A DNA stretch of 64,000 nucleotides from Acutalibacteraceae bacterium (GCA_045544455.1 JAZPYZ010000022.1:8819-72818), one strand, 5' to 3'. Counted from the stretch's first letter, positions 7,002 to 62,788 are shown. Notes: generated by a model from the letters alone, not told the origin. Translations and numbers: made by a program.

Positions 7002-7138
7002 ACAGTTCCCTTCTTTCTCAAGAGTTTTGTCTCGCGCAACGCCTTGCGCGTAACTTTTTATATATATTAGAGCCCGTTATGTAAAAAACATAACGGAAAA
7101 AAGCCCTAAAATAGCGTCTATTTTTAGAGACAACACAT

Positions 7139-7176
7139 CGTAGGGGCGCAAACGCATCGGCGATGCGCCCCTACGA
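7139..7176 (-). terminator. Stem-loop after the 628-aa SBP gene (weak terminator / processing site)
   Basis: tcgtaggggcgca ... tgcgcccctacga, a 13-bp stem. Only a weak U-run follows on the minus strand. Confidence 0.4.
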
Positions 7177-7208
7177 GATGATTCAGTTATACAAGGTGAT
7201 CAGAGAGA

Positions 7209-9044: not shown

Positions 9045-9211
9045 GATGTCTCCTCCAAACATTTTTCTTCTTTGTATTTTACCGCACGCGAGCAAGTCCC
9101 TCCGCGCGGAAATTACCGTTTTTGTACTACTGGTTACATTTTACTATAAACCATAGCGTTTGTAAATCGTTTTTTGCGGTTTTTTCTGCCAAATTTTGCA
9201 AATCCACTCGA

Positions 9212-10183: not shown

Positions 10184-10223
10184 ATGCTTTTACCTCCAAT
10201 TTCAAATCATAATAGGGTGTGTC

Positions 10224-11133: not shown

Positions 11134-13374
11134 TCAGTTTCCTCCTTTCACGGTGTAACCGTTGGCCGGTACCGTCACATCATCCACCGACACGTCCGCA
11201 TCGGTATAGTTTACATAGACCGTAGCACCGTTTTCGTACACGGTTTTCGCGACGTCTTCCACCACGTAGCTGTGATGCATGATCGCCGAACCTTCGGTTT
11301 GATCATAGACGTCGTTCAGCGTTTCGTACGCGGTCACCACGTCGTCGGCATATTGGCCGTATTCGATGCTGTACAGCGTGGTGTACTTGGTGTCACGCAG
11401 TTCGTCATAGTCGGTTTCGGTCAACAAGAAGGTCATCATGCTGCCGGTCTCGATCGCCTGCAAGGTCATTTCGCTGACCGAGGAGGTCAAGTTCGCCGCG
11501 GAAGCCGAATAGGTTTTCGCGCCGGAGAATACCAACTGATAGAACGGGATCGAACGATCCACCACGTCGAAGCGGCTGGACGAGATCGGCAGGTTGATGA
11601 TCGTGTCCGCGCTGAGCACGCCCGGCAGGTTACCGCCGGAAGCCATTACCGGATACGATTCTGCAAATTTCGCCGTGGCCTTTTCGATTGCTTGTTCACT
11701 GTCGTTGCGGATCCAACCAACCTGACGGTAGTCGGAATACAACGTATCGCCGAACGAACCGGTCGAGATACCGATTTCGCCGTATTGATCCAGTTTCGAG
11801 AAGGCTTTTATCACCTTATCGCTGATATCGCCGATATTGACCATCGACATCAGTTTAGAGGATTGCGATTTGGTTTCAAACAACAGTTGGATACTGAAGG
11901 CTTCTTTCTTCGCCAAGGTGCCGCTGATGGTCTGTGCACCGCTGGCGAACGACAGATAGCCGTTTCCAAACTTGTTAGTCAGTTGTAATTCTTGATCCAG
12001 ATACAGATCCACGTCGTTTTCGTTGCAGTATTGGATCAGTTCTTTAAAGGCTTTTTTGCCGCCCAGATCGCCCGAGATCGACACCTTGCCGGCGGCTTTC
12101 TGTTTGATCAGGGTGTTGTCCCAGTTAACGTAACGGACCGTGATATCGTCCACACCGGCTTTTTGAAGTTTTTCCAACATCGCTTTTGCCGCGGTGTAGT
12201 CGGTGATCTCTTGGATTACGTCGGTCTGGATGCCCATAACCGGACGAGTAACGCTGACACCACCGTACAGTTCGAGGAAGATGCTCGTATCGGATTCATC
12301 CGACACGGTCATGCCTTCTTCTTCGATCAGGTATTGTTGATAGCGTTTCGCCATGCCGGAATAATCCGCATTCTCTTTGTCCAAGAAGAAGTAGGACATT
12401 TCGACAAAGTCGGCGTTGATGCCGCCCTCTTCGTACACGATGAACTGCTGCACACGGGTGTACACGGTGGTACCGAGCGTGTAGGTATCGTCGCCACGTA
12501 CCCGGAAGGTCACGCTGGCGTTGTTGTACGAGGTTTTGTTGCCCGAAACGCCGGCGTTGATTTCCGCCGAACTGTTTTGGGTAATAACACCCAGCATCGC
12601 GGCATCGCCGTTCTTGATACCGAACATCGGCAGATGCGCATCTTGCGTGGTGGTTTCTTTCCGGAGCAGGGTTTCGGTCACGTCACGGCCGTACACCGGT
12701 TGCGAGTACGACGTATAGGCGTTTTTGCCGTTGTTGAAGTCGATCATCGCACCGCTGCCGTCCGGCACCACGATGTAGCCGGTATCTTCGGTCGAGCCGG
12801 CGCCGAAATACGGCAACAGATCAATCTTAGACATGACGTTGGTACCGGTTTCGGTGATCTCTTCGGTGATGATCCGTGCGCACAACCGATCTTCTTTCAG
12901 TTCGAGTTCGACCGGAATGAAGAACCCTTCATAATCCATCGTATACTCGATGCGGACACCGTTTTCGATGCCTTTGACCTCAAAGTTGCCGGATTTGACC
13001 GACGAGGTAAAGGACGCGGCGGTATCGCGCACGCTGTTTTTGTCGATGTAATGTACGATCAGCATCGTTGCGAGTTGTTGCTGATACTTACCTTTCGCAA
13101 GCGGATCTTCTTCCCACGCGGTGGGGTTACTGTACCAAACCTTGCCGGATTTCAAATCTTCTACCGTAAAGAAACAGGTTTCTTGGTTGAAGGTGAATTT
13201 CAGGTTTTTGTTTTCGATCACGACGTCGCCGGCCGGCAGATCAAAGGTTTCTTTCGAAACGGCTTTGTCGCCATCGTCCGCGGTCGCCGAAATCATCGCC
13301 CCATGCGAGAAACCGACAATGCAGGCCATCGCACACACGCACGCGAGAAGAGCTTTCAGTTTTGTATGTAACAT
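11134..13374 (-). CDS. Secreted protein of unknown function, DUF5696-like
   Basis: 746-aa ORF behind GAAGGAGGAA, with an N-terminal signal/anchor MLHTKLKALLACVCAMACIVGF. No catalytic motif I can name. Size, secretion signal and position next to a Yip1 gene inside a sugar-ABC cluster match what I recall for DUF5696 proteins. This needs HMM confirmation. Confidence 0.7.
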   Translation of the reverse strand: MLHTKLKALLACVCAMACIVGFSHGAMISATADDGDKAVSKETFDLPAGDVVIENKNLKFTFNQETCFFTVEDLKSGKVWYSNPTAWEEDPLAKGKYQQQLATMLIVHYIDKNSVRDTAASFTSSVKSGNFEVKGIENGVRIEYTMDYEGFFIPVELELKEDRLCARIITEEITETGTNVMSKIDLLPYFGAGSTEDTGYIVVPDGSGAMIDFNNGKNAYTSYSQPVYGRDVTETLLRKETTTQDAHLPMFGIKNGDAAMLGVITQNSSAEINAGVSGNKTSYNNASVTFRVRGDDTYTLGTTVYTRVQQFIVYEEGGINADFVEMSYFFLDKENADYSGMAKRYQQYLIEEEGMTVSDESDTSIFLELYGGVSVTRPVMGIQTDVIQEITDYTAAKAMLEKLQKAGVDDITVRYVNWDNTLIKQKAAGKVSISGDLGGKKAFKELIQYCNENDVDLYLDQELQLTNKFGNGYLSFASGAQTISGTLAKKEAFSIQLLFETKSQSSKLMSMVNIGDISDKVIKAFSKLDQYGEIGISTGSFGDTLYSDYRQVGWIRNDSEQAIEKATAKFAESYPVMASGGNLPGVLSADTIINLPISSSRFDVVDRSIPFYQLVFSGAKTYSASAANLTSSVSEMTLQAIETGSMMTFLLTETDYDELRDTKYTTLYSIEYGQYADDVVTAYETLNDVYDQTEGSAIMHHSYVVEDVAKTVYENGATVYVNYTDADVSVDDVTVPANGYTVKGGN

Positions 13375-23291: not shown

Positions 23292-23870
23292 TTATAAATC
23301 ATAGAGCGACCGATACATCTCTTTGGCTTCGGCCACTTTTTGGACATATTGTTCGGTTTCCGCAAACGGAATGGTATGCAACGTTTCGCCGTCATCCGAA
23401 TACGCCGGATCATCCAACCATTTCCACACGTTGCCCATGCCGGCATTATACGCCGCGAGCACCGTTTCTTCTGTCGAAAACAGTTGACCAAGCGAGTGCA
23501 ACGTCGCGCACCCGAACCGAATGTTGAGTTCGGGATCGGTCAGACAGTCTGCCTCGTACGGCGGATCGATCCGTTCGCGCCATTGTGCCCATTCAAAGGT
23601 GTCCGGCGTAAGTTGCATCAACCCGATCGCGCCGGCCGGCGAAACCGCGTCGGCTTGAAACCCGCTTTCGGTACAGATCACCGCATACACCAACACGGGA
23701 TCTAATTCATATTCTGCCGCATATTGTTCTACCCATTCGGTATATTTTAACGGATATTGCGCACGGTAAAACCGATCCTGTGCCTCCCGGAACACCAGTA
23801 TTCCGGCGATCACGATCGCTACCGTCAATACACCCGTGATCGCGAGCGTGATCCAACGTTTTCGGTTCAT
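23292..23870 (-). CDS. Membrane-anchored lytic transglycosylase (SLT domain)
   Basis: N-terminal TM WITLAITGVLTVAIVIAGILVF. SLT catalytic block VICTESGFQADAVSPAGAIGLMQLTPDTFEW. Confidence 0.85.
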   Translation of the reverse strand: MNRKRWITLAITGVLTVAIVIAGILVFREAQDRFYRAQYPLKYTEWVEQYAAEYELDPVLVYAVICTESGFQADAVSPAGAIGLMQLTPDTFEWAQWRERIDPPYEADCLTDPELNIRFGCATLHSLGQLFSTEETVLAAYNAGMGNVWKWLDDPAYSDDGETLHTIPFAETEQYVQKVAEAKEMYRSLYDL

Positions 23871-32640: not shown

Positions 32641-33522
32641 ATGAAACAAACGCGGCTATCCGAACTAAAAACGTTGCGTATCCAAAATTTCATCTGTTTG
32701 CTGGTAGCCGGTTTTATCAACGCGTTTGGCGTGATCATGTTTCTTGCGCCGGTCAAACTCTACGATAGCGGTATTTCGGGCAGTTCGATGCTGTTATCGC
32801 AACTCACCGACGGACACGTATCGTTATCGGTGTTTTTGTTGATTCTAAACGTGCCGTTGTTTTTATACGGACTAAAAAAACAAGGGGCGGCGTTTACCGT
32901 GTATTCCCTGTTTACGGTCGGGGTGTATTCCTTGTTCGCGTGGTTGATCACCGACGTATTGCCGATCGACGTGAGCATCGTATCGCCGCTGGCCGGCAAC
33001 GATTTGTTGCTGTGCGCGTTGTTTGGCGGCGTGATCTCCGGAATCGGGAGTGGGTTGACCATTCGGTTCGGCGGCGCGATCGATGGGATCGAGGTTATGG
33101 CGGTGATCTTTGCCAAGAAACTGAACGTGACGGTCGGTACCTTTGTCATGATCTACAACGTGATTTTGTATGTGATCGCCGGTATTGCGCGGCACAGTTG
33201 GGTGTTGCCGTTGTATTCGATCATCGCGTATGGGGCGGCATTGAAGACCGTCGACTTTATCGTGGAAGGGTTTGACCGGTCGAAAGAAGTGATGATCATC
33301 ACCGATACGCCGGACGAACTGATCGTGGCCTTGACCGAAACGTTTGGGCACGGCGCCACCAAGATCGCGGCCAAAGGCGGTTATTCCAACAAGGATAAAG
33401 CGGTCATTTATTTCGTGGTCAACCGGTTCGAGATCTCGCGGATGCGCGAACTGGTCCACACGATCGATCCGGCGGCGTATCTCACCATCAGCGAAGTGGC
33501 GGATGTCTTTAAAGGACAATAA
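32641..33522 (+). CDS. YitT-family membrane protein (DUF2179 C-terminal domain)
   Basis: 293 aa, 5-6 TM helices, then a soluble tail KAVIYFVVNRFEISRMRELVHTIDPAAYLTISEVADVFKG. Confidence 0.8.
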   Translation: MKQTRLSELKTLRIQNFICLLVAGFINAFGVIMFLAPVKLYDSGISGSSMLLSQLTDGHVSLSVFLLILNVPLFLYGLKKQGAAFTVYSLFTVGVYSLFAWLITDVLPIDVSIVSPLAGNDLLLCALFGGVISGIGSGLTIRFGGAIDGIEVMAVIFAKKLNVTVGTFVMIYNVILYVIAGIARHSWVLPLYSIIAYGAALKTVDFIVEGFDRSKEVMIITDTPDELIVALTETFGHGATKIAAKGGYSNKDKAVIYFVVNRFEISRMRELVHTIDPAAYLTISEVADVFKGQ

Positions 33523-33530
33523 CACCAACC

Positions 33531-33568
33531 AAAAAAACCGGTTCGGCCCATGCCGAACATCTTTTTTT
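33531..33568. terminator. Bidirectional terminator (yitT, plus strand / hexapeptide-repeat gene, minus strand)
   Basis: aaaaaaaccg gttcggc ccat gccgaac atcttttttt, with A/T runs on both sides. Confidence 0.7.
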
Positions 33569-34269: not shown

Positions 34270-35643
34270 TTATTTTCCTACGCAGAATCGCGCAAAAATA
34301 TCTTCAATAATCGCTTCGGACGCGCGTTCGCCGGTCAGTTCCCCGATCGCGCCGATCGCGCTATCGATACTGATCGCGGCGGCATCCGGTGTTAATCCGC
34401 TATCCAACGCAAACAACGCTTCGTCAACACCGGCACTCGCGCGCAAGGCGCAATCGCGTTGCCGTTCGGTCGCTAAGATCGGTTCGTCCCCGGTGATGCC
34501 GGCGATGCCGGTAACACGTGCGACCGCCGCGCTCAATTCCGCGATCCCGTCGCCGGTGACGGCGCTGAGTTTCACGGTATGTTCAAATGCGGTTTGAACC
34601 ACCGACGGATCCCACGCGGCGGCTTGATCGGTTTTGTTGATGATGGCGATAACAGGTTGTCCATCGAGTTGACGGATGAGATCGGTATCGTCGGCGATCA
34701 ACGGACGACTGCCGTCAAACACCGCCAAGATCAACGCGGCGTGTTTCATACGGGCGCGCGCACGCGCAATGCCGATCGATTCGACCTCGTCTTCCCCGTC
34801 GTGCAGGCCGGCGGTATCGGCTAACCGCAAGGTGACGTCACCGAGCCGCACCGTTTGTTCCACGATATCGCGGGTGGTGCCGGCGATCGGGGTGACGATA
34901 CTGCAATCGTAGCCGGTGAGTTGGTTCATCAAGGTAGATTTCCCCACGTTGGGACTGCCGACAATCACCGCATCCACCCCTTCACGAATAACGCGCCCGG
35001 CATCAAAGGTATCCAGTAACGCCGCAAGGCCGCTTTTCGCGGTGCGCAGGATGGATTGCAGTTCCTCAACCGGCAGGTCGGGGATATCGTCGTCGGGATA
35101 GTCGATAAACGCAGCAAAACCGGACGCCGCTTCGGTTAATTGCTGTTTGATGTCGGCCAACGCCCGATAGATCGCGCCTTCACGCGCGGCGGCCGCGGTT
35201 TTGACCGACAGTTGTCCGTCGGCGGCGATGACCTGCATCACCGCTTCGGCACCGGTGAGATCCATTTTGCCGTTGATAAAGGCGCGTTTGGTGAATTCCC
35301 CGGCGGTGGCAGGCCGCGCACCAGCGGCAATCGCCGCGCGTAACACCCGTTGTAACAAGTATATGCCGCCATGGCAAGAAAATTCAACAACCTCTTCTCC
35401 GGTATAACTGTGGGGCGCACGAAACACCAACGCCACACAATCGTCCAGGTCGCCGGTTTCGTCAAACACGTGCCCATATAACGCCGTATAGCCGGCGGCA
35501 TCCAGCAAAGACGATCCTTGTTTGGCCGGCCGGAACATCGAATTGGCGATTTGAACCGCGTTGTCGCCGGATAATCGCACCACGCCTAAACCGGCCGGTG
35601 CGGCCGGTGTCGCGATCGCCGCAATGGTCGTCTGCATGATCAT
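34270..35643 (-). CDS. mnmE: tRNA modification GTPase MnmE
   Basis: 457 aa. G1 GSPNVGKSTLMN, DTAG, terminal CVGK tetrapeptide. Its ATG overlaps the upstream stop (ATGA). Confidence 0.95.
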   Translation of the reverse strand: MIMQTTIAAIATPAAPAGLGVVRLSGDNAVQIANSMFRPAKQGSSLLDAAGYTALYGHVFDETGDLDDCVALVFRAPHSYTGEEVVEFSCHGGIYLLQRVLRAAIAAGARPATAGEFTKRAFINGKMDLTGAEAVMQVIAADGQLSVKTAAAAREGAIYRALADIKQQLTEAASGFAAFIDYPDDDIPDLPVEELQSILRTAKSGLAALLDTFDAGRVIREGVDAVIVGSPNVGKSTLMNQLTGYDCSIVTPIAGTTRDIVEQTVRLGDVTLRLADTAGLHDGEDEVESIGIARARARMKHAALILAVFDGSRPLIADDTDLIRQLDGQPVIAIINKTDQAAAWDPSVVQTAFEHTVKLSAVTGDGIAELSAAVARVTGIAGITGDEPILATERQRDCALRASAGVDEALFALDSGLTPDAAAISIDSAIGAIGELTGERASEAIIEDIFARFCVGK

Positions 35644-38600
35644 ATCCCCCCGTTCGCCGTCACCAACTGCACGTTAGACGAGGTGGTGATCGAGTAATAG
35701 TGTGCGAGGATCTGGTCATAGGTCCAACCGTATTCGCCGGCGTAGATCATCGCACCGAGTTGACTTAATCCGACGCCGTGTCCGTGTCCGTAACAGGTGA
35801 TGATCACCTGGTTGCCGTTATATTGAATGGTAAACGCGTGCGAAAACAGGTCGAGTGCCGAACGGATCTGACGGCCGGTGAGATATTTTTTGGTCGAACC
35901 GCTGAAGTAATACGCGTTGGTTTTGGTAACGTAGCGGTTGACGCCGCCGGCGCCGGTTCCGTAAGCCGTGACAGCAAAGGTATCCCCGTCGAGATACACC
36001 GGTTTGCCCGTGTAGGCGGTGAGTTTATCGGTCAACGTATCCGCCGCCATCTGTTCTTGCGATTGGACGGTGGTGGTTTTGGTGGGTATATATTTTTGAC
36101 ACATTTCGATGGTTTCGGCCGAACTGTCTACCGATACCAAATGCGCCAAACTGGAACCGAACACCTCGTGATTATTGGCCGTGATACCGGCAGAAGCGGC
36201 ATAATACGGCGTATACGGCAGTTTGCCGGTAGACGTATCGATCAGTTTTTCGCCCAATACCGCTTGGACCGCCGCATATACCCGTTGTTCGGTCGCGGAA
36301 CCGTTTGGATCGAACGATTTGATAAATGTGACCGGATACGCTTGGTTTTCGGTTTGCACGTAGAACAACACGTAGGTGTAAGCGGCCACGGCTTGTGCTT
36401 TCATCGCCTCGATATTGGCGTTGACGTAGCCGATTTCGTGAAATACCAGTTTCGATAACGCCAAACACACCTCGTCTCGGGTGCTGTGCGGCAATTCTCC
36501 GCTTTCTTTCCCCTTGCCGTAGATGCGGAAATCCGCAAATCGTTCGGTTTCGGACACGGTATCCACCCCTTTAACCGGAGAGGCCGGCGGTTCGGTCGAA
36601 CCAAGCGGCAGATAGGTCGGCGCGGTGGTCGTCGTGGTGGTCGTCGTGGTGGTAGGCGGCGCGGTCGTCGTGGTCGACGGGGCCGTCGTAGTCGTGCCGG
36701 TGGTGGTAGACGCACCGGAATCCGTCACGCCGGCGATCCCGCGATACCCATCGGGTAAGATCGCGCGAGTATTGGGTTCGACCGTGATATCGGTGGTGGG
36801 TTCCCACACCTTTTTCGCCGCGATAATCAGACGCACCCCGTCGAGCCCGGTTTCGACCGACAGGTCGGTATCGAGCAACAACAACTGGTCGGTGATATCC
36901 GGTTCGACCGAGACGTTAAACAACGAACGGGCTTGCAGTTCGCTGATAAAGGTCACGAATTTATCGTCGTCCGAATGCGGATGTTTGGTATAGTCGAACG
37001 CGCCTTCGGTTTCGTCCGGTTGGACCACCGCTACCGCAAAGATCTCCCAACGGGCGGTTTCGAACAAAGTATCCATCTGCATCGAGGGATGGTCGCGCAA
37101 AAACGCTGCGTCGGCGTACTGCACCAGTTCGGCAAATCCTTGTTGTTCCTCGACGTTACTGCCGGTGATCCGCAATACACGGTTGTTGGAATAAATGCTG
37201 TAAAACGAGGCGTCGTGCGAGAAATACGGCGTGCCGATCTCGCTTTCCTCGCGGTTGAAATCGTGGGTTTGATAGTAGGTTTCGTCAATCGATTGCACCA
37301 CCGGCGTATCGATAGTTGTTCCCGGGATGGTTAACCAACCACGCACGTCGTCGTTGGTCTCGTACAAGGTGACAAACTGTTCGAGCATGCCTTCGGGTGC
37401 ATCGGGTTTCTCTTGGTCTTCTTGGTCGATCTGCCAATCATAGTCGCCCTCGGTCACGACGTCGCGAGTCGGGAACAACCATTGATACAACGCGGTATTG
37501 TTCCACCACGGCAATGCCCATTCGGTGAACATAAACGCGACGAACGAACCGAGTAAAAGCAACATCCATACGATACTTTTGATCCATTTGGCGGTGCGAC
37601 TGCCCTTCCACGGCCAGATGCCGCCCATACCGGTGGGTTTGGCGTCCACCGGGGCACGTTCAATCACCGTGGGTTCGGGTTGATCGGCAGACGGTTGAAT
37701 CAACAGGCCGCCGGCCATGACCGTCGGGATCGCCAGCAAATACCGGCGCACCAGATCCAGCGCGTGGGAGGTGGCCAAATACCGCACCTGTTCCCGGTCG
37801 TTGAGCCGGCCGGAGGTGATCTTTTTCACCCAAACGCGTTTTTCGTCGGCTAACGCGATATATACCGTGCCGACGGGTTTTCCTTCGCTTTCGTCGGGAC
37901 CGGCCACGCCCGAAATGCCTACGCCGAGGTCGGCGTTGCCGACGCGGCGCGCACCGATGGCCATCGCACTGACGGTTTCGGCACTGATCGCGCCGTATTG
38001 ATCCAACATTTCTTGCGGCACACCGAGCACTTGATGTTTAATCTCGTTGGAATACGAAGCAATACCGCAATCAAACACGTCCGATACGCCGGGCACTTCG
38101 GTCAAACGACCGGATAACAGGCCGGCGGTACAGGATTCGGCGGTGGCGATCTTTAAACCGTGTTGGCGCAACATCGACACGACCACCTGTTGCAGGTTGC
38201 CGTCCCCGATAAGGTATACCGCGTCGCCTAACCGGTCACGAATTTGATCGATCGCCGGTTGACACAGCGCGTGGGCTTGTTCTTCGTCGGCGGCACGCGC
38301 GGTCACGCGCAACACCACTTCACCCGATTTGGCATACGGGGCAACCGTCGGGTTTTCGCCGGCCATCAGGTCGGCGCACCGTTCGGAAATGGTGGATTCC
38401 GGAATACCGAACACGTGCAGATTATGCGACAAGATCACCCCGTCGGTAAAACCGGCGAGATACGGCGCTACGTGGGTTTCGAACATGGGAATCAGTTCGC
38501 GTGGCGGACCGGGTAACATCACCACGATCGTGCCGCCGTGTTCTACCGCGCAACCCGGCGCGGTACCGAACGCGTTGGGAAACACGGTGCACCCGGCCGG

Positions 38601-38960
38601 CAACATCGCTTGTTTTTCGTTGTTGGCGGTCATGGGATTGCCGGTACGGGCAAAATACGCGCGGATGGCGTTTAAACTCTCTTCGTGGGCGACTAACTCA
38701 ATCCCCAACACGTCACTGACCGTTTCGCGCGTCAGATCGTCCTGTGTCGGGCCGAGACCGCCCGTAATCACGATCAGATCACTGCGCAAAATCGCGGCGC
38801 GCAACTCGGTTTGTAACCGGTCGACGTTATCGCCGACGGTCGATTGATGCAACACCGACACGCCAAGCGCAGCCAGTTCTTTAGATAAAAACTGACTGTT
38901 GGAATTTAAAATATCCCCGAGCAACAACTCGGTGCCGACGGTGATGATTTCGGCGTTCAA
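35640..38960 (-). CDS. Fusion protein: CinA (MoCF-binding + PncC/NMN-deamidase domains) - TM helix - degenerate class B sortase-like domain - Thr-rich linker - SpoIID/LytB domain
   Basis: Continuous ORF 35640..39146. I place the start at TTG 38958-38960 (M)NAEIITVGTELLLGDILNSN, 6 nt after AAAGGAGAG. CinA C-domain: IATAESCTAGLLSG. TM: IVWMLLLLGSFVAFMF. Sortase-B-like region: DDVRGWLTIPGTTIDTPVVQ ... RITGSNVEE ... LLLLDTDLS. Poly-T linker. SpoIID blocks: AMKAQAVAAYTYVL and GHGHGVGLSQLGAMIYA...ILAHYY. Confidence 0.8.
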   Translation of the reverse strand: MNAEIITVGTELLLGDILNSNSQFLSKELAALGVSVLHQSTVGDNVDRLQTELRAAILRSDLIVITGGLGPTQDDLTRETVSDVLGIELVAHEESLNAIRAYFARTGNPMTANNEKQAMLPAGCTVFPNAFGTAPGCAVEHGGTIVVMLPGPPRELIPMFETHVAPYLAGFTDGVILSHNLHVFGIPESTISERCADLMAGENPTVAPYAKSGEVVLRVTARAADEEQAHALCQPAIDQIRDRLGDAVYLIGDGNLQQVVVSMLRQHGLKIATAESCTAGLLSGRLTEVPGVSDVFDCGIASYSNEIKHQVLGVPQEMLDQYGAISAETVSAMAIGARRVGNADLGVGISGVAGPDESEGKPVGTVYIALADEKRVWVKKITSGRLNDREQVRYLATSHALDLVRRYLLAIPTVMAGGLLIQPSADQPEPTVIERAPVDAKPTGMGGIWPWKGSRTAKWIKSIVWMLLLLGSFVAFMFTEWALPWWNNTALYQWLFPTRDVVTEGDYDWQIDQEDQEKPDAPEGMLEQFVTLYETNDDVRGWLTIPGTTIDTPVVQSIDETYYQTHDFNREESEIGTPYFSHDASFYSIYSNNRVLRITGSNVEEQQGFAELVQYADAAFLRDHPSMQMDTLFETARWEIFAVAVVQPDETEGAFDYTKHPHSDDDKFVTFISELQARSLFNVSVEPDITDQLLLLDTDLSVETGLDGVRLIIAAKKVWEPTTDITVEPNTRAILPDGYRGIAGVTDSGASTTTGTTTTAPSTTTTAPPTTTTTTTTTTAPTYLPLGSTEPPASPVKGVDTVSETERFADFRIYGKGKESGELPHSTRDEVCLALSKLVFHEIGYVNANIEAMKAQAVAAYTYVLFYVQTENQAYPVTFIKSFDPNGSATEQRVYAAVQAVLGEKLIDTSTGKLPYTPYYAASAGITANNHEVFGSSLAHLVSVDSSAETIEMCQKYIPTKTTTVQSQEQMAADTLTDKLTAYTGKPVYLDGDTFAVTAYGTGAGGVNRYVTKTNAYYFSGSTKKYLTGRQIRSALDLFSHAFTIQYNGNQVIITCYGHGHGVGLSQLGAMIYAGEYGWTYDQILAHYYSITTSSNVQLVTANGGI

Positions 38961-39007
38961 AACGGTCTCTCCTTTCGCGCCCATTTCCGAAACACGGCGT
39001 ATGGCCG

Positions 39008-40186
39008 TTATCGGATCCGCATCCAGCGCAGATTCGACATCGCCTGTTCGACCAATTCGTCGATCGGCAAACGGCTTTCGGCGCGTTCGGCCATCTCGAC
39101 AGTCGGGCGGGTGCGCGGATGTTTGGGGGTAAATACGGTACAACAATCTTCGTACGGCAGGATCGAGATCTCAAACGTTTCGATCTTGCGTGCGATCTGA
39201 ATGATTTCTTCTTTATCCATCCCGATGACCGGACGGAATACCGGCAAGGTGGTGACCGCATCGGTACACATCAACGCCGGAATGGTTTGACTGGCGACCT
39301 GGGCCACACTTTCGCCGGTAATCAACGCGCCGCAGTCTTCCTTGCGGGCGATTTGTTCGGCAATGCGCATCATCATACGGCGCATGGTGACGGTAAACAT
39401 CTCTTCGGGACTGAGATCCCGGATGCGTTCTTGAATCTCGGTAAACGGAACGATACACAGCGAAATGGTACCGGCATATCGCGCCACCTGTTTGAGTAGT
39501 GAAATAACCTTTTGTTCGGCGCGTTCACTGGTATACGGCGGCGATGCAAAATGGATGCAGGTCAATTCGATCCCGCGTTTGGCCATCATGTACGCCGCGA
39601 CCGGCGAATCGATACCGCCGGAAATGAGCAGGGCCGCTTTGCCACCGGTTCCGACCGGTAATCCGCCGGCGCCCGGCAGTTGGGCCGCGTGAATATACGC
39701 ACCGAAATCCCGAATCTCTACCCAAACGGTGACGTCGGGATGGTGTACGTCCACCTTCAGATGCGGAAACGCGGCGAGTAACGCGCCGCCGACCTGGGCC
39801 CCGATCTGGGGCGACGTTAACGGAAACTGTTTATCGCTGCGGCGTGCTTCAACCTTAAAGGTGCGTGCCGTGGATAACCATTCCCGCACGTAGTCGGGCG
39901 CCGCTTGTTGAATCGCGGTGATATCTTTCTCCACCATCAACGCACGGGTATACGCCGAAATGCCGAATACCCGCGATACGCGGTCACACGCCTCGTCCAA
40001 ATCGAGATCGTCTTCCAACGGACGGATAAAGATGGTGGATTGTGATTTGCGGATATCAAACGCACCCAGTTCTTTCAAGCGCCACCGCAGATTGTGGATG
40101 AGCACATCCTCAAAATGGCCGCGGTTTAATCCTTTGAGTGCCAATTCTCCGTTTTTAATTAAGATCATTTCCTGCCGATTTTGCAT
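39008..40186 (-). CDS. thiI: tRNA 4-thiouridine(8) synthase ThiI
   Basis: ORF 39008..40198. Start moved to ATG 40186, behind GAGGGA. THUMP-type N-terminus (ILIKNGELALKGLNR). PP-loop ALLISGGIDSPVAAYM. Confidence 0.9.
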   Translation of the reverse strand: MQNRQEMILIKNGELALKGLNRGHFEDVLIHNLRWRLKELGAFDIRKSQSTIFIRPLEDDLDLDEACDRVSRVFGISAYTRALMVEKDITAIQQAAPDYVREWLSTARTFKVEARRSDKQFPLTSPQIGAQVGGALLAAFPHLKVDVHHPDVTVWVEIRDFGAYIHAAQLPGAGGLPVGTGGKAALLISGGIDSPVAAYMMAKRGIELTCIHFASPPYTSERAEQKVISLLKQVARYAGTISLCIVPFTEIQERIRDLSPEEMFTVTMRRMMMRIAEQIARKEDCGALITGESVAQVASQTIPALMCTDAVTTLPVFRPVIGMDKEEIIQIARKIETFEISILPYEDCCTVFTPKHPRTRPTVEMAERAESRLPIDELVEQAMSNLRWMRIR

Positions 40187-40237
40187 GGTATCCCTCACTC
40201 CACGCCCGTGGATTTACCGGGCGTGTTTTCGTTATGA

Positions 40238-41665
40238 TCAAGTCGACGGGGTAGCCGTCGTGGTGGTCGTGGTGGTCGATTCGCCACTCGACGAGGTATC
40301 GGACCCGGAGGTCGTCGTGGTCGTGCCGGTGGTGCCGCCGAACAGTTTCGACGTGTAGAAATCCGGCACCTGCAGATGATGGTTTACATACCACGCATAC
40401 GGCATGATGACGTCTTTGTTCGCGGTGATGGCATTTTCGTCGGTCTCGTACGATTCGTGCGAACGCAACAACCGCGCAAACACCGCAATGCGTCCGTTTT
40501 TCAGTTTGGACGTGTTTTCGGTCGTGCAGGTAGACAACACCAACAACTGATCGTCCGGCCGGATGTCTACCGCGTCATAGTTCCAGTATGACCGGGTGCG
40601 GACCTGTTCGATAAAGTCCAGGAATTCCGCATCGCCGGAAAACACCTTTTGCCGGTAATCGAAATAGTATTTCTCCTCGGCATCTTCGTCGAACATCGCG
40701 ATCGCAAACACGCGATATACCTCATGCCCGTACAGGGTTTCGAGCGCGATGCTGGTGGCGTTGCGCGCTTTGTCCAGGTTGGTGGTCAGCGAAATGACGT
40801 CCGAGAACATCTGGCCGTTGATGTTGTTATGACCGTAGACGATGGTGCTTCTCAGGTTGTTACGGAAGGTATCCACCCAGTTTTGTTCGTCAAAGAACAA
40901 CGCACCGTTGCTGTTTTTCTTTTTGTAAAAATCGTGATCCAGATAATACTCGTTATCCCCCGACCACATGACCGGATACTCGATATCCAATTGGTTGGAT
41001 CCGTCATCCGATTCAAAGATCAAGTAGCCGCGCAGATCGTTGTTTTGGGCATACATCGCTTTGAGCACGTTGGTCATGCCGGACGGAAATTCTACCCCTT
41101 GATACTCGATCGGTACGTCGACCGGCGCATCGGGATTGTATAAATCGCTGACACTGTTGTACGTCTGCTCGTTCATAAACGGCACGTACACCATATCGTA
41201 TACCAAATAGCATATCGAACTCAGCAACGATACGATCGCGACCAAAAACACGGACTTGCGCACCTTTTCGCGGCCGGAGTCGCGTTTGGTTGGGAATATT
41301 TTACCCAGTTTTTCACCGATCTTATGCATGGCGCGGCGGCTGTATTTCGCCGGAACGACCGCTTCTTCTGCCTCGGATTCCCGTTCGGACGAAACCGCAT
41401 ATACCAACGACATATCTTTCGGCGTTGCCGACGGAGCAGTATCTTCCTCCGGTTGCGCATCGCCTTGTTCGGCCGCGTCCTCAACCGGTTCTTCCGTTTC
41501 CGCAACCGCGTCCTCGGCCGGCGGTTCGGCAACAGCCGGTTCCGCCGGTTGGGTAGCCAGATCGTCCAACACTTCGTCTACCGTTTCGTCCAAATTGGGT
41601 TCGACCGGGTTGGTGTCGGTGTTGGGCAATTGATTGTTTTCCCGTTCGGTATTCATATTCGACAA
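40238..41665 (-). CDS. srtB: Class B sortase with long acidic cytoplasmic N-terminus and Thr/Ser-rich C-terminal tail
   Basis: 475 aa. TM VFLVAIVSLLSSICYLVY. Catalytic blocks TIVYGHNNINGQMF (His), LLVLSTCT (Cys) and GRIAVFARLL (Arg). N-terminal lead-in NDLRGYL...DIEYPVMWSGDNEYYLDHDF is typical of SrtB. Tail is GGTTGTTTTTSGSDTSSSGESTTTTTTTATPST. Confidence 0.85.
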   Translation of the reverse strand: MSNMNTERENNQLPNTDTNPVEPNLDETVDEVLDDLATQPAEPAVAEPPAEDAVAETEEPVEDAAEQGDAQPEEDTAPSATPKDMSLVYAVSSERESEAEEAVVPAKYSRRAMHKIGEKLGKIFPTKRDSGREKVRKSVFLVAIVSLLSSICYLVYDMVYVPFMNEQTYNSVSDLYNPDAPVDVPIEYQGVEFPSGMTNVLKAMYAQNNDLRGYLIFESDDGSNQLDIEYPVMWSGDNEYYLDHDFYKKKNSNGALFFDEQNWVDTFRNNLRSTIVYGHNNINGQMFSDVISLTTNLDKARNATSIALETLYGHEVYRVFAIAMFDEDAEEKYYFDYRQKVFSGDAEFLDFIEQVRTRSYWNYDAVDIRPDDQLLVLSTCTTENTSKLKNGRIAVFARLLRSHESYETDENAITANKDVIMPYAWYVNHHLQVPDFYTSKLFGGTTGTTTTTSGSDTSSSGESTTTTTTTATPST

Positions 41666-41694: not shown

Positions 41695-42831
41695 TTATCG
41701 GGCGCGCGCCAAGGTGCGCATCCCTTCATGCAAGACGGCAACCAACCGGTCGATATCTGCTTCGGTGTTTTGCCGGCCAAAACTGATCCGCAATGCGGAA
41801 TCGGCTTCGCGTTTCGGGAGTCCCATCGCCATCAACACGGCGCTTGGTTTCCCTTTAGCACAGGCCGAACCACTGGACAGATAGATCTCGCGCGAGGCGA
41901 GAAAATGCAACATGGTTTCGCTGCGAATACCAATGACCGACAGGTTGACGATTGCCGGCAGATGGTTGGCCGGACGGTGGAACACGATCCCGTCTTCCCC
42001 CTCGAGTGCCGTGACCAATCGATCGCACAACGTCTGCATATGGCGGCGATGTTCCGTCAAGTTCGGTAACGCCCGGATCGCCGCGCCAAACGCCGCGATC
42101 AACGGAACCGCTTCGGTCCCGCCGCGCAAACCGCGTTCTTGTTCACCGCCGCAGATCAACGGACGGATCCGTTCATTTTTGCGGATATACAGCGCACCAC
42201 ACCCTTTGGGCGCGTGCAATTTATGCGCGCTGACCGTGAGAAAATGCACGCCGAGTTTGCGCACGTTGACCGGCAGTTTGCCGATCGCTTGTACCGCGTC
42301 ACAATGTATCTTCGCGTTTGGGAACTCCCGCGCGATCGCCGCGGCGGTTTCGGCCACCGGAAAAATGGCACCGGTTTCGTTATTGACCAACATCATGCTG
42401 ACCAACACGGTGTCCGGTCGACAGGCCGCGAGCATCTGTTCGGCCGCGATATCGCCGTGTTCATCCGGCAACACACGCGTGACTTCGTACCCGTTTTGTT
42501 CCAACGTGGCGGCCGCGGCACCCACCGAAGAATGTTCCACCGCGGTGATCACCACGTGTTTACCGACACGCGGGCGAGCGGTACAACTGCCGATGATGGC
42601 GAGATTGTTGGCCTCGGTGCCGCCGGACGTGAAGAGAATTTCGTCTTCCCTGGCCCCGATCAGCGTGGCAACCGCTTCTCTTGCGGCATTCAACTCCTGC
42701 TCGGCCCGGATACCCAACGTGTGCAAAGACGACGGATTGCCGAACGTATCGGTCATCATCGCCATCGCTTTGGCGGCGGCTTGTTCACACACCGGCGTCG
42801 TCGCACTGTTATCCAAATAGCACAGATCCAT
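41695..42831 (-). CDS. nifS: Cysteine desulfurase (NifS/IscS class V aminotransferase)
   Basis: ORF 41695..42987. Start moved to ATG 42831 (MDLCYLDNSATTP), behind AAAGGAGAG. PLP-lysine block LTVSAHKLHAPKG. Catalytic Cys loop LSSGSACA. Confidence 0.9.
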   Translation of the reverse strand: MDLCYLDNSATTPVCEQAAAKAMAMMTDTFGNPSSLHTLGIRAEQELNAAREAVATLIGAREDEILFTSGGTEANNLAIIGSCTARPRVGKHVVITAVEHSSVGAAAATLEQNGYEVTRVLPDEHGDIAAEQMLAACRPDTVLVSMMLVNNETGAIFPVAETAAAIAREFPNAKIHCDAVQAIGKLPVNVRKLGVHFLTVSAHKLHAPKGCGALYIRKNERIRPLICGGEQERGLRGGTEAVPLIAAFGAAIRALPNLTEHRRHMQTLCDRLVTALEGEDGIVFHRPANHLPAIVNLSVIGIRSETMLHFLASREIYLSSGSACAKGKPSAVLMAMGLPKREADSALRISFGRQNTEADIDRLVAVLHEGMRTLARAR

Positions 42832-42903
42832 TCTCTCACTCTCCTTTGCGCCGTAACCTTTCGTAAAATCCATCTCGACAGTTACCCTATTATACATCTT
42901 AAT

Positions 42904-42932
42904 ATTATAGCGTATCTGAGCCCAATTCGCAA
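42904..42932 (-). promoter_or_regulatory. Sigma-A-type promoter for the nifS-srtB-thiI-cinA fusion-mnmE operon
   Basis: Minus strand: TTGCGA (revcomp of 42927-42932), 17 nt, TATAAT (revcomp of 42904-42909). Lies about 70 nt upstream of the nifS ATG. Confidence 0.6.
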
Positions 42933-43024
42933 CCTTTTTTCTTTTAACATTCTTTGAATTTCCGGTGGAAAAGTTTGCGATAAACAAAGCGTATTATTTT
43001 TAGCAAATATTCCTTGCTGTATAT

Positions 43025-43066: not shown

Positions 43067-43984
43067 TTATTTACTGCTTTTAAATCCTTCACCGAGCACC
43101 TCGTCGGTGGTGACGGTGATGACGAACGCCGACGGATCGATATCGTAGACCAGTTGCTTGACCGGGTACACCTCGTTACGGCGGACGGCGATGAGCAACA
43201 TGTCGCGCGGCGCGCCGGTATAGCCGCCGACCGCATTGAGCCTGGTTACGCCGCGATCGATTTGGGTGATGATGGCGTTGATGATTTCTTGTTCATGTTT
43301 AGACGAAACCAACAACATTTTACCGGCATCGTTACCGTAGATGAGGGTATCGATGAGTTGACTGGACATAAAGATGGTTACGCTGGCGTACAGCGCGTTT
43401 TCCAAATGGCCGTACACGAACACCGATGCCGCTACAACCACCACGTCTAACAGCAACATAAACCGGCCGATCGGGATGTGGCGCAGTTTTCGTTCGAGCA
43501 ACTGGGCAATAATGTCGGTACCGCCGGTGGATGCCCCTCGCATGAAAATAAGTCCTAAGCCGGCACCGGCCAACACGCCGCCGGCCAACGCCACCAAGAT
43601 CATGTCTCCTTCAAACGGGGTGATCCATACCGAAAACACGTCGATCAGGACCGAACTGATCGCCATACAGATGGCGCTTTTGAACACGAATGCGTGTCCG
43701 AGTTTGATCCAACCGATCACCACGATGGGAACGTTCATCACGATCATCGAAATACCGATCGGCAGGCCAAACAGATAGTTGAGCAAGGTGGCGATACCCG
43801 AAATGCCGCCCGGCGCAATATCGTTGGGGGCGGTGAACATCGCGACCGAAAGGGCGTAGATTGCACTACCCGATAAATACGCCATCCAATCGACGATCCA
43901 ACGTTTCCATTGGGCACGACGAGCAAGGGTTTCGGGTTTGGGTTGTTTTTTCTTAAGCTTCGGTTTGTTGCGTTTCATCGGCAT
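43067..43984 (-). CDS. YitT-family membrane protein (second copy)
   Basis: 305 aa, polytopic, with a DUF2179-like tail LLIAVRRNEVYPVKQLVYDIDPSAFVITVTTDEVLGEGF. Confidence 0.8.
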   Translation of the reverse strand: MPMKRNKPKLKKKQPKPETLARRAQWKRWIVDWMAYLSGSAIYALSVAMFTAPNDIAPGGISGIATLLNYLFGLPIGISMIVMNVPIVVIGWIKLGHAFVFKSAICMAISSVLIDVFSVWITPFEGDMILVALAGGVLAGAGLGLIFMRGASTGGTDIIAQLLERKLRHIPIGRFMLLLDVVVVAASVFVYGHLENALYASVTIFMSSQLIDTLIYGNDAGKMLLVSSKHEQEIINAIITQIDRGVTRLNAVGGYTGAPRDMLLIAVRRNEVYPVKQLVYDIDPSAFVITVTTDEVLGEGFKSSK

Positions 43985-45673: not shown

Positions 45674-45703
45674 ATTATATCGCGACTTGTCCCGTTCTGT
45701 CAA
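45674..45703 (-). promoter_or_regulatory. Sigma-A-type promoter for obg
   Basis: Minus strand: TTGACA (revcomp of 45698-45703), 18 nt, TATAAT (revcomp of 45674-45679). Confidence 0.6.
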
Positions 45704-48480: not shown

Positions 48481-49338
48481 TTATCTGTCTTCCGGTACCA
48501 GTCGGTTTGCGAGTTCCTGCAAATCGGCATCCCCGTAAAATTCGATCTGTAATACGCCTTTGTTGCCGCCGGCAGTCACCTTGACCTTGCGACCGAGATG
48601 TTCGGTCAACGCGATAGCTACTTCTTGATAAAACGCGTGGCCGCCGCCAAAGGTGGCCGGTTTGGTGCCGGACTTTTCGGTCGGGTTGGCTTTGGCGCGT
48701 TGTTCGGTCTCACGTACCGACCAACCGGCCGCTACCGCCTGCTTCGACAGTTCGATCTGCCGTGCTTCGTCGGCCTGCGCCAAGATCGCCCGGGCGTGTC
48801 CGGCAGACAGTTGACCGGATTCGACCATTTCCGCCACCGATGCCGGCAGTTTCAACAACCGCAACGCGTTGGCTACCGCCGGCCGTGATTTACCGACTGC
48901 CGTGGCCGCTTGTTCTTGCGTCAAACCATAGGTTTCCATCAACGTACGATACCCCAACGCCTCTTCCATCGGGTTCAAGTCTTCGCGTTGCAGGTTTTCG
49001 ATGATAGCGAGTTCCGCCGCCTCACGATCGCTCATTTCGCGCACCACCGCCGGGATTTCGGTCAATCCGGCCGCTTGTGCCGCGCGCCAACGCCGTTCGC
49101 CGGCCACGATGCGATACCCACCGCGCGTCAACGGACGCACCAAAATCGGTTGCAACACCCCGTGTTCGGCAATCGAAGCGGTCAATTCCGCCATCGCCTG
49201 TTCATCAAACCGCTTACGCGGTTGATCAACGTTGGGTTCCACTTCTAAAATCGGTAACAATTCGGCAGCGGTCGACACGGTATCGTTTTCTTCAAACAAC
49301 GCCGTGAGCCCTTTGCCAAGTCCCCGTTGAATCGCCAT
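48481..49338 (-). CDS. parB: Chromosome partitioning protein ParB/Spo0J
   Basis: 285 aa with IVAGERRWRAAQAAGL and the HTH LTQEQAATAVGKSRPAVANALRLL. Confidence 0.95.
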   Translation of the reverse strand: MAIQRGLGKGLTALFEENDTVSTAAELLPILEVEPNVDQPRKRFDEQAMAELTASIAEHGVLQPILVRPLTRGGYRIVAGERRWRAAQAAGLTEIPAVVREMSDREAAELAIIENLQREDLNPMEEALGYRTLMETYGLTQEQAATAVGKSRPAVANALRLLKLPASVAEMVESGQLSAGHARAILAQADEARQIELSKQAVAAGWSVRETEQRAKANPTEKSGTKPATFGGGHAFYQEVAIALTEHLGRKVKVTAGGNKGVLQIEFYGDADLQELANRLVPEDR

Positions 49339-49339
49339 C

Positions 49340-50101
49340 TTATTGCCCTCCTATCAATTCATCTGCGAGCATATTATACGCGATCGCCCCCTTGGACGAG
49401 CGATCGTAATACGCGATCGGTTTCCCGTGGCTGGGCGCTTCCGACAACCGCACACTACGCGGAATCGGTTGCGAAAACACCTTGCGCGGAAAGAATTTCT
49501 TGACCTCAGCCGCGACCTGTTGCGTCAAATTCAACCGCCCGTCAAACATGGTCAACAACACCCCTTCGATATCGATGTGGGGATTGTACAACCGCTTGAC
49601 CTGCCGCACCGTCGCCATCAGTTGGGATAACCCTTCGAGCGCAAAATATTCGCACTGGATCGGCACGATCAAGGTATCGGCCGCACACAACGCGTTGAGT
49701 GTCAACAATCCGAGCGACGGCGGACAATCGATGAAAATATAATCGTATTCGTCCCGCAACGCCGCGAGCGCCACTTTCAGACGTGCCTCTCGCCGAGAAA
49801 ACTCGATGAGTTCGATCTCCGCGCCGGCCAACTCCATGCCGGACGGAATCACATCCACGTTGGTAAACGCGGTGTGTACGATCACGTCCTTCGCGTCGAC
49901 ACCGTTAATCAACATCTCGTACGACGTTCCCTCGGTCTTGCGTTTGTTGATGCCCATGCCGCTGGTGGCGTTTCCTTGCGGATCGATATCCACCAACAGG
50001 CACTTTTTATCTTTGAGTCCGACCGCCGCCGTCAGGTTAACGCTGGTCGTGGTCTTCCCCACGCCGCCCTTTTGGTTGACGATCGCCATGATTTTTCCCA
50101 T
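49340..50101 (-). CDS. parA: Chromosome partitioning ATPase ParA/Soj
   Basis: 253 aa with the deviant Walker A NQKGGVGKTTTS. Confidence 0.95.
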   Translation of the reverse strand: MGKIMAIVNQKGGVGKTTTSVNLTAAVGLKDKKCLLVDIDPQGNATSGMGINKRKTEGTSYEMLINGVDAKDVIVHTAFTNVDVIPSGMELAGAEIELIEFSRREARLKVALAALRDEYDYIFIDCPPSLGLLTLNALCAADTLIVPIQCEYFALEGLSQLMATVRQVKRLYNPHIDIEGVLLTMFDGRLNLTQQVAAEVKKFFPRKVFSQPIPRSVRLSEAPSHGKPIAYYDRSSKGAIAYNMLADELIGGQ

Positions 50102-62730: not shown

Positions 62731-62760
62731 AAGCGTTGTTCCTTCGTCTTTAACAAGAAA

Positions 62761-62788
62761 ATCGGGCGGAATTTCCATTCCGCCCGAT
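62761..62788 (-). terminator. Hairpin between jag and mnmG (attenuator/terminator)
   Basis: atcgggcggaat-ttcc-attccgcccgat, a 12-bp stem, followed on the minus strand by tttcttgtt. Confidence 0.55.

Follow-up and report, generated by a model that had tools for sequence, protein, structure and literature searches.

A CinA protein fused through a transmembrane helix to a predicted non-catalytic class B sortase domain and a SpoIID/LytB-type domain in an Acutalibacteraceae bacterium

The fusion gene and its reading frame

We analysed a 64,000-nucleotide stretch of DNA from an Acutalibacteraceae bacterium (GCA_045544455.1 JAZPYZ010000022.1:8819-72818), and the whole of this stretch is referred to here as the window. 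The gene under study lies on the minus strand and encodes, in one frame, a CinA protein, a single transmembrane helix, a class-B-sortase-fold domain without the catalytic His and Cys, and a SpoIID/LytB-type domain. The gene and its parts are arranged as follows.

35640-38960, minus strand: whole fusion gene, 1106 amino acids plus stop, with a TTG start, a Shine-Dalgarno sequence (AAAGGAGAG) and a stop codon that overlaps the mnmE start (ATGA)
38445-38960, minus strand: CinA N-terminal COG1058/MoCF (ADP-ribose pyrophosphatase-type) domain, residues 1-172, with the GGLGPTQDD motif
38211-38435, minus strand: CinA KH domain, residues 176-250 (Pfam CinA_KH)
37731-38204, minus strand: PncC (nicotinamide mononucleotide (NMN) deamidase) domain, residues 253-410, with all active-site residues present
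37581-37730, minus strand: cytoplasmic linker, residues 411-460, with two motifs conserved in the family, IPTVMAGG immediately behind CinA and IWPWKGS...K shortly before the transmembrane helix
37518-37580, minus strand: single transmembrane helix, residues 461-481, from hydropathy, positive-inside and N-in
36717-37409, minus strand: predicted catalytically dead class-B-sortase-fold domain, residues 518-748, from alignments and the AlphaFold2 fold
37158-37160, minus strand: codon of Ser601, in place of His in the alignment to SrtB
36864-36866, minus strand: codon of Asp699, in place of Cys in the alignment to SrtB
36831-36833, minus strand: codon of Arg710, the Arg being kept in the alignment to SrtB
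36576-36716, minus strand: Thr/Pro-rich low-complexity stalk, approximately residues 749-795
35661-36458, minus strand: predicted SpoIID/LytB-type lytic transglycosylase domain, residues 835-1100, from hidden Markov model (HMM), profile and AlphaFold2 evidence
36435-36437, minus strand: codon of Glu842, which aligns with E101, the catalytic residue in C. difficile SpoIID

The longest open reading frame (ORF) at this position extended from 35640 to 39146 on the minus strand and ran into the terminal part of thiI at 39008. All homologs supported the TTG at 38960 as the start codon; it lies 6-7 bases past AAAGGAGAG, and the product begins with MNAEIITVG. The original prediction had described one uninterrupted frame of approximately 1107 codons; we found 1106 amino acids plus the stop codon without any in-frame stop, and all of the peptide strings quoted in that prediction were present, including the internal Met at 37628. 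At the junction between CinA and the transmembrane helix, the fusion frame was free of stops and the other two frames were closed. The gene was also confirmed to be a single cistron, as orthologs in at least 10 independent assemblies kept one open frame and the internal Met was not conserved (P0003 has none there). Separate translation from Met445 was rejected.

The possibility that sequencing or assembly errors (loss of a stop codon, a frameshift or chimeric joining) had created a false fusion had nothing in its favour beyond the prior. The state of the three frames at the junction spoke against it, and the same four-part frame recurred at 31-47% identity in independent metagenome-assembled genomes (MAGs) from human, goat and sheep gut and in metagenomes, with the synteny kept. 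Because independent orthologs carried the same fusion, we excluded an artefact and regard its probability as negligible. A protein identical to the window protein (P0001), found in the C-terminal homolog search, was not counted as independent support because it probably came from the same assembly. It is virtually certain that the gene is real and conserved, that it encodes one bitopic membrane protein, and that the four-part architecture is genuine.

The CinA portion, the linker and the transmembrane helix

The N-terminal portion was found to be a complete CinA, as originally described. It scored 505.3 bits with the CinA equivalog model NF001813 of NCBIfam (PRK00549; cutoff of 379) over residues 1-409 and 398.3 bits with TIGR00200 (cutoff of 243.15), and Pfam matches to MoCF_biosynth, CinA_KH and CinA were present. 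The PncC residues E275, S276, T278, G280, S293, Y303 and K308 showed the same spacing as the active site of O. iheyensis PncC (E281, S282, T284, G286, S299, Y309 and K314; PMC3855486). With all three domains and the catalytic residues intact, the CinA portion is predicted to be an NMN deamidase/ADP-ribose pyrophosphatase.

We compared the window protein with T. thermophilus CinA (PMC4246079) and O. iheyensis PncC (PMC3855486) and found that it had all three CinA domains and all of the PncC residues. Whereas known CinA proteins are soluble and contain approximately 410 residues, the C-terminus of the window CinA ran on into the transmembrane helix and approximately 620 extracytoplasmic residues. 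T. thermophilus CinA is reported to be a dimer (PMC4246079). CinA has been noted to be joined now and then to additional domains, and such fusions were left out of that analysis (PMC3855486).

Only one hydrophobic segment was present in the whole protein (residues 461-481), with Lys and Arg residues on its N-terminal side. This segment corresponds to the helix that had been proposed between CinA and the extracytoplasmic part, and the positive-inside charge gave an N-in orientation. The predicted topology places CinA inside the cell and the remainder outside, with the sortase-like domain next to the membrane.

The cytoplasmic linker contained a juxtamembrane motif, (I/L/F)(I/L/F/W)PxKG(D/S), the window copy of which is IWPWKGS at residues 448-454. 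Among the 136 family members in which at least 110 residues precede the sortase domain, a strict regular expression for this motif matched 55. We also observed that the longer form (I/L/F)(I/L/F/W)P(W/Q/C)KG(D/S)...(V/I)RK preceded the transmembrane helix in active and dead members alike (37596-37619 in the window, residues 448-455), and that a second linker motif, LPxVMAGG, lay directly behind CinA throughout the family.

A class B sortase fold without the catalytic His and Cys

The middle domain had been called sortase-B-like, and both sequence and structural comparisons upheld this assignment. Using phmmer against PDB sequences, approximately 220 residues were aligned to SrtB from B. anthracis, L. 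monocytogenes, C. difficile, C. perfringens and S. aureus, with a best E-value of 6e-19. An AlphaFold2 model of the domain was built on 13 family sequences and showed a predicted local distance difference test score (pLDDT) of 86.9 and a predicted template modelling score (pTM) of 0.87. The top 19 PDB matches of this model in Foldseek were all SrtB structures, with an E-value of 4e-20 and TM-scores of 0.62-0.90, the target-normalised scores being 0.70-0.90. The SrtB model TIGR03064 matched residues 520-698 of the fusion protein (E-value of 4.5e-26) with 91.6 bits, which is below the equivalog cutoff of 153.75, and no match of the fusion protein to Pfam Sortase (PF04203) was reported. Additionally, the domain carried a conserved C-terminal extension, N-x3-(L/I/M)(L/M)P.

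The catalytic triad was read from an alignment to B. anthracis SrtB (2oqw) and by hmmalign. The His of YGH corresponded to Ser601 (in TGS), the Cys of STC to Asp699 (in DTD, with a one-residue gap in the alignment) and the Arg to Arg710. The predicted replacements of His by Ser and of Cys by Asp were thus recovered, while the expected loss of the entire triad held for His and Cys but not for Arg. Because the catalytic triad and the HMM cutoff tests both failed, we concluded that the middle domain is probably not a sortase enzyme. The domain could in principle still be an enzyme in which Ser601 and Asp697 or Asp699 form a new catalytic pair, as the window protein has Ser and Asp at the His and Cys positions and keeps Arg710. 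However, both positions varied within the clade of dead sortases (N, S, K, E, A, Q or R at the former His site, and D, S, P, E, N, T, G or Q at the former Cys site), and no alternative nucleophile was conserved, so that this proposal appears highly improbable.

The window domain had the same fold as the class B sortases of S. aureus (1ng5/4lfd), B. anthracis (2oqw/1rz2), C. difficile (5gyj) and C. perfringens (5b23), and, as in those proteins, it directly followed an N-terminal membrane anchor. The triad Arg and the Thr preceding the Cys position were also kept. In contrast to class B sortases, it was without the catalytic His and Cys, fell below the NCBIfam cutoff and had the conserved C-terminal extension. 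Whereas an ordinary SrtB is a stand-alone protein of approximately 220-250 residues, the window domain sits between a 460-residue cytoplasmic CinA region and a SpoIID domain.

The stalk and the SpoIID/LytB-type domain

The SpoIID/LytB domain that had been proposed behind the Thr linker was verified with TIGR02669 (SpoIID/LytB domain), which gave 101.9 bits against a cutoff of 83.3 over residues 838-1092. A 16-sequence profile of the family's SpoIID domains identified C. difficile SpoIID (5i1t; E-value of 3e-54) and B. anthracis SpoIID (E-value of 6e-47) in the PDB. E842, within FHEIG, was an invariant column of the family and aligned to E101 of 5txu (B. subtilis E88), the residue for which experiments established a catalytic role in C. 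difficile SpoIID (PMC6221140). The GHGHGVGLSQ motif was present, and the AlphaFold2 model of the domain (pLDDT of 85.1) matched SpoIID structures only, with TM-scores of 0.65-0.71. The C-terminal domain is therefore predicted, from its catalytic Glu and motifs, to be an active SpoIID/LytB-type lytic transglycosylase.

We compared this domain with SpoIID/LytB proteins from B. anthracis (4rwr), C. difficile (5i1t/5txu) and B. subtilis (LytB) and with a chlamydial homolog (PMC6635528) and found a shared fold at the TM-scores given above, together with the catalytic Glu and the SSAGxT and GYGHGVGxSQ motifs. Unlike those proteins, the window domain was below the SpoIID equivalog cutoff, and the 24-residue Zn-binding turn that is specific to C. 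difficile SpoIID (PMC6221140) was absent from the fusion family's SpoIID domain. Moreover, known SpoIID is tethered directly to its transmembrane helix, whereas the window domain is tethered via the Thr-rich stalk to the sortase fold.

These features raise the alternative that the protein is the organism's sporulation SpoIID, the engulfment lytic transglycosylase, with extra domains, and that its role lies in engulfment and not in vegetative wall or sortase biology. The fold, the catalytic Glu and the GYGHGVGxSQ motif agree with this alternative, and relatives are spore formers, to judge by the ypeB and spoVA genes close to the locus in L014, L016 and L018, three related loci described below. 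However, the SpoIID equivalog TIGR02870 failed (85 bits against a cutoff of 234.75), so that only the generic SpoIID/LytB model passed. The closest stand-alone relatives of the domain were not canonical SpoIID but secreted SpoIID/LytB paralogs of 430-520 residues with a signal peptide and poly-Thr, and the canonical type (for example, P0036) was distinct and contained an insertion absent from this family. In addition, the gene sits in a housekeeping tRNA-modification operon, and PASTA or Big_2 modules occupy the same position in other family members. No sporulation genes were found among the window ORFs scanned. On balance, we consider an engulfment role very unlikely.

A large family of CinA-sortase fusions

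A search with the C-terminal 662 residues identified six further proteins of 1126-1158 residues with the same four parts and 31-40% identity in that half; P0018 was also a four-part fusion, with a more diverged middle domain. When residues 331-640, which span the junction, were used as the query, most matches were fragments or ordinary CinA proteins. We scanned one genome per GTDB species with a single peptide pattern from a 5-sequence alignment, and the resulting count is a lower bound: human, goat and sheep gut MAGs assigned to uncultured Ruminococcaceae, Acutalibacteraceae and Clostridia contained at least 11 loci. The nearest relatives of the source organism were MAGs of uncultured Ruminococcaceae and Acutalibacteraceae. 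At nine of the 11 loci, CinA, the transmembrane helix and the dead sortase (with or without SpoIID) were in one open frame of 1120-1194 residues, two of the nine being cut by contig ends. Related genomes were thus not uniformly split at this gene, and the order iscS, SrtB-like gene, thiI and fusion gene was conserved among them.

A profile of the sortase domain was searched against 1.84 billion cluster representatives and gave 19,552 matches at E-values of 1e-3 or lower and 4,451 at 1e-30 or lower, the weaker of which presumably include ordinary SrtB. Domains were mapped on the best 150 representatives (all above 229 bits) with purpose-built HMMs, and the triad was assigned by hmmalign to B. 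anthracis SrtB. Together with 14 proteins from the C-terminal search and the window protein, this gave 165 sortase domains, 117 of which kept His, Cys and Arg. More than 50 members among the best 150 had a full CinA N-terminal to the sortase; others had PncC only (many of these being contig-end fragments) or a degenerate CinA-N relic. By BLASTP, the N-termini of P0007, P0008, P0010, P0011, P0013 and P0014 aligned to the CinA N domain with 18-27% identity. A transmembrane helix lay between CinA and the sortase in 70 of the 71 PncC-containing members, often preceded by an IFPWKGD...RK-like motif. The C-terminal module was variable and consisted of SpoIID, three PASTA repeats (P0090, 1194 residues), Big_2 repeats (P0104; P0175, 1403 residues) or nothing. 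One protein of 936 residues, P0132, contained two sortase-like domains.

Several proteins (P0144, P0173, P0156, P0042, P0147, P0073 and P0116) combined an intact CinA, an intact triad and SpoIID. P0073 is MCI8442061.1, a protein of 1252 residues from a Provencibacterium sp. MAG, which is labelled "nicotinamide-nucleotide amidohydrolase family protein" by NCBI and "SrtB family sortase" by JGI, neither of which names the architecture. The domain order, the iscS-thiI position and the juxtamembrane motif of P0073 were the same as those of the window protein. The two differed in that the P0073 type kept the triad and had no adjacent stand-alone sortase, whereas in the window the fused sortase is dead and an active paralog is encoded two genes upstream.

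Members of the family are usually encoded immediately behind iscS-thiI. The window protein has CinA, one transmembrane helix and an SrtB fold in a single frame, a locus downstream of iscS-thiI and the juxtamembrane motif. On these comparisons, it is one variant of a large, unannotated Oscillospirales/Clostridia family in which CinA or a CinA-N relic is followed by a transmembrane helix, SrtB and then SpoIID, PASTA, Big_2 or nothing. Full-text searches of the literature found no paper that combined CinA with SpoIID or a sortase, and no "pseudo-sortase" or similar term and no description of a natural dead sortase, in keeping with the earlier remark that the architecture was undescribed.

Triad loss and the stand-alone paralog

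Three genes upstream of the fusion gene belong to the conserved block.

39008-40198, minus strand: thiI (tRNA 4-thiouridine synthase), between the active paralog and the fusion gene
40238-41665, minus strand: stand-alone SrtB-like paralog of 475 amino acids with a transmembrane helix and a sortase domain with an intact His/Cys/Arg triad
41695-42987, minus strand: cysteine desulfurase gene of the iscS/nifS type, with which the conserved iscS-srtB-thiI-fusion block begins

The paralog lies 1.3 kb upstream of the fusion gene and contains the motifs YGH...STC...GRI. It passed Pfam Sortase (34.1 against 26.6) and was below the TIGR03064 cutoff. The original designation as a bona fide class B sortase therefore needs qualification: the protein is SrtB-like with an intact triad, but it is divergent and does not reach the NCBIfam equivalog cutoff. 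Its N-terminus comprises approximately 140 cytoplasmic residues that are very acidic and of low complexity, for which the composition suggests disorder; an IFPTKRD motif stands before the transmembrane helix, and the C-terminal tail is poly-Thr. This paralog probably acts as the catalytic partner. iscS and thiI are normally adjacent partners in tRNA thiolation, and the paralog gene is inserted between them.

The state of the fused triad and the neighbouring genes at the comparable loci were as follows.

Window, L001, L003-5 and L007-11: fused sortase without His and Cys; stand-alone triad-bearing SrtB-like gene between iscS and thiI
L014: dead sortase (NDK) with SpoIID and a CinA-N relic (P0009); CinA-transmembrane-SrtB protein of 977 residues with the triad two genes upstream
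L016: dead sortase (EDQ) with SpoIID (P0007); triad-bearing SrtB of 400 residues directly upstream, preceded by a separate cinA encoding 468 residues
L013 (CinA-transmembrane-SrtB): triad kept; no active sortase nearby; same iscS-thiI position
L018/L019 (all-in-one, P0073): triad kept; no active sortase nearby; same iscS-thiI position

As evident from this comparison, an active sortase was encoded within two genes at every dead-sortase locus with a readable flank (the window, L001, L003-5, L007-11, L014 and L016). In L014, the genes for the 977-residue CinA and active SrtB protein and for the protein with the CinA relic, dead SrtB and SpoIID adjoin (4425-7358 and 8001-11018), and a TIR_2 and Sel1 protein follows. 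L016 (4264-9474) has in a row a stand-alone cinA, a stand-alone active srtB and the relic/dead-SrtB/SpoIID protein P0007; this cinA is adjacent to and separate from srtB, and its product is without a transmembrane helix.

A neighbour-joining tree of the sortase domains placed the dead sortases in one clade, the sister of which was formed by the stand-alone paralogs of the window's lineage. In each lineage, a single good copy of CinA and of the sortase and a single SpoIID were kept, but their distribution over two paralogs differed. In the lineage of the window, the dead sortase and SpoIID remained joined to the full CinA, and the active sortase had only the acidic low-complexity N-terminus. 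These comparative data make duplication followed by subfunctionalisation quite probable.

Selection on the dead sortase domain

The ratio of nonsynonymous to synonymous substitution rates (dN/dS) was calculated by the Nei-Gojobori method, for which the closest pair, L003 and L004, was unsaturated (dS of 0.5-0.8). In this pair, the ratio was 0.039 for CinA, 0.080 for the linker and transmembrane helix, 0.077 for the dead sortase, 0.157 for the SpoIID domain and 0.216 for the Thr-rich stalk, which was the least constrained segment. The dead-sortase ratio was 0.13-0.19 in more distant pairs. These values argue that the dead sortase domain is functional and under strong purifying selection. As no replacement catalytic pair was conserved, the constraint would act on the fold or on surfaces and not on catalysis.

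The most serious rival explanation is a neutral fusion by operon adjacency, in which cinA was joined to a neighbouring membrane-anchored sortase/SpoIID gene, the parts remained independent while sharing expression and a tether, and the dead sortase is a spacer that is being lost. The separate, adjacent cinA and srtB genes at the same locus in L016, the position of CinA after iscS-thiI in all relatives and the decay of the CinA moiety to a relic in several paralogs are what such a fusion would leave. However, the fusion was maintained across dozens of 50%-identity clusters, degenerate CinA-N relics were retained instead of being deleted, and the cytoplasmic linker motifs LPxVMAGG and PWKGD were conserved. 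Moreover, the linker, the helix and the dead sortase were strongly constrained (dN/dS of 0.08), and the dead domain does not appear to be a decaying spacer because it was more constrained than the SpoIID domain. Neutral adjacency is thus unlikely, although it is less readily dismissed than any other alternative considered here.

Proposed role of the fusion protein

The explanation that we favour overall, with some reserve, is that a non-catalytic sortase scaffold, the outcome of duplication and subfunctionalisation, works with the active paralog and the SpoIID-type domain. The ancestral protein would have combined all of the parts, including an active sortase, in one chain, as does the Provencibacterium sp. 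protein P0073. Duplication would then have yielded the stand-alone active SrtB paralog (here at 40238-41665), and the fused copy would have lost catalysis. The dead sortase may have been kept as a non-catalytic module at the outer face of the membrane, where the active paralog works, and it might bind either this paralog or the paralog's ligand, which could be a sorting-signal peptide or lipid II/stem peptide. The Thr-rich stalk would carry the glycan-cleaving SpoIID-type domain into the wall, where the paralog would anchor proteins. CinA presumably stays a housekeeping NMN deamidase/ADP-ribose pyrophosphatase, and it is probably also a cytoplasmic anchor or an oligomerisation/dimerisation domain because non-catalytic CinA-N relics were retained in paralogs. 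The specific role of the dead sortase as a partner or scaffold is put forward tentatively, as a possibility in which we place less confidence than in the overall explanation.

Several points weigh against this explanation. The correlation between triad loss and an active paralog reflects few independent events because the loci are related and share ancestry. The neighbour-joining tree is rough, with 233 columns and without bootstrap support, and the Arg710 position was only partly conserved in the dead clade (R, K or H). No second cinA, spoIID or sortase gene was found besides the upstream paralog in a search that covered the window. Because cinA and srtB are separate in L016, physical fusion to CinA is not obligatory and may stem from operon adjacency and not from functional coupling.

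The original prediction had further suggested that CinA chemistry is coupled to the wall module and that sorting signals are bound but not cleaved; both ideas are plausible and go beyond the evidence. A stronger form of the first would make the protein a transmembrane coupling device, in which the ligand or oligomeric state of CinA (NMN, ADP-ribose or metabolites derived from nicotinamide adenine dinucleotide (NAD)) is relayed via the transmembrane helix and the PWKGD motif to the dead sortase. The dead sortase would then partner allosterically with both the neighbouring active sortase and the SpoIID-type lytic transglycosylase. We consider such a device distinctly unlikely. If it were true, the anchoring of cell-wall proteins and the cleavage of glycans would be tuned to the NAD turnover or damage status of the cell, the long-enigmatic "competence/damage-inducible" CinA would have a cell-envelope role, and the dead sortase would be the first pseudo-sortase regulator from nature.

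The degenerate LytM factors EnvC and NlpD activate amidases. By analogy only, the scaffold that we propose resembles these factors in that a dead homolog of an envelope enzyme is under selection beside active wall-remodelling enzymes. The fold and the partners differ.

CinA, sortase and SpoIID are all textbook families, and their combination, in which a covalent link across the membrane joins an NAD-recycling enzyme to a sortase and to a domain that cleaves peptidoglycan, appears undescribed. The family is large, with thousands of sortase-profile matches and dozens of CinA-fused clusters among the best 150 representatives alone; it is so far confined to mostly uncultured gut Clostridia, and databases label its members only as "CinA" or "SrtB". 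A natural pseudo-sortase that is under strong purifying selection next to an active paralog would offer a clean system for a non-catalytic role of the sortase fold and an example of duplication followed by reciprocal domain decay. The gene fusion also hints that CinA, the physiological role of which is debated, may be linked to the cell envelope.

Operon setting and other features of the window

The remaining features that bear on transcription of the fusion gene were as follows.

34270-35643, minus strand: mnmE, the ATG of which overlaps the TGA of the fusion gene
42904-42932, minus strand: promoter-like site with 10 of 12 matches just upstream of the conserved iscS part, a consensus match only
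33541-33558, no strand assigned: bidirectional terminator-like hairpin downstream of a hexapeptide-transferase gene

The overlap between mnmE and the fusion gene suggests translational coupling within one operon. Between the promoter-like site that precedes iscS and the hairpin at 33541-33558, no strong terminator-like hairpins were found, and only weak consensus matches were listed; the hairpin itself is the probable end of the operon. A perfect 12/12 sigma-70 consensus (TTGACA, an 18-nt spacer and TATAAT) was observed upstream of obg at 45674-45703 on the minus strand. This site could drive an obg-yitT-iscS-srtB-thiI-fusion-mnmE-hexapeptide transferase transcript that ends at 33541-33558. 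Two YitT/DUF2179 membrane-protein paralogs with 24% identity flank the operon (43067-43984, minus strand, and 32641-33522, plus strand).

In Firmicutes, parB/noc-like, parA and mnmG genes lie near oriC. Genes of the parB/noc-like, parA and mnmG types were present in the window (48481-50101 and 60862-62778, both on the minus strand), and mnmE (34270-35643, minus strand) is approximately 25 kb from mnmG and not adjacent to it.

A membrane-anchored SLT-domain lytic transglycosylase of 192 residues, which is peptidoglycan-cleaving and unrelated to SpoIID, is encoded at 23292-23870 on the minus strand. The minus-strand gene at 3501-7001 lies in a glycan-uptake cluster and encodes a protein of 1166 residues with a signal peptide and without a Pfam or NCBIfam match. 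Its C-terminus, in which ...NTPNSNTGNASG is followed by a hydrophobic stretch and KKKRED, resembles a cell-wall sorting signal, and the protein is a candidate substrate of the SrtB-like enzyme. Two ABC solute-binding proteins linked to carbohydrate-binding modules were also observed, both on the minus strand: an ABC solute-binding protein in which SBP_bac_8 is fused to CBM_11 (7209-9095) and an SBP_bac_8 protein of 990 residues with a weak, sub-threshold CBM_35 match (22 against 28 bits; 17454-20426). Both have a DUF5696 protein (11134-13374) and sugar permeases as neighbours, an arrangement suggestive of a polysaccharide-utilisation locus.

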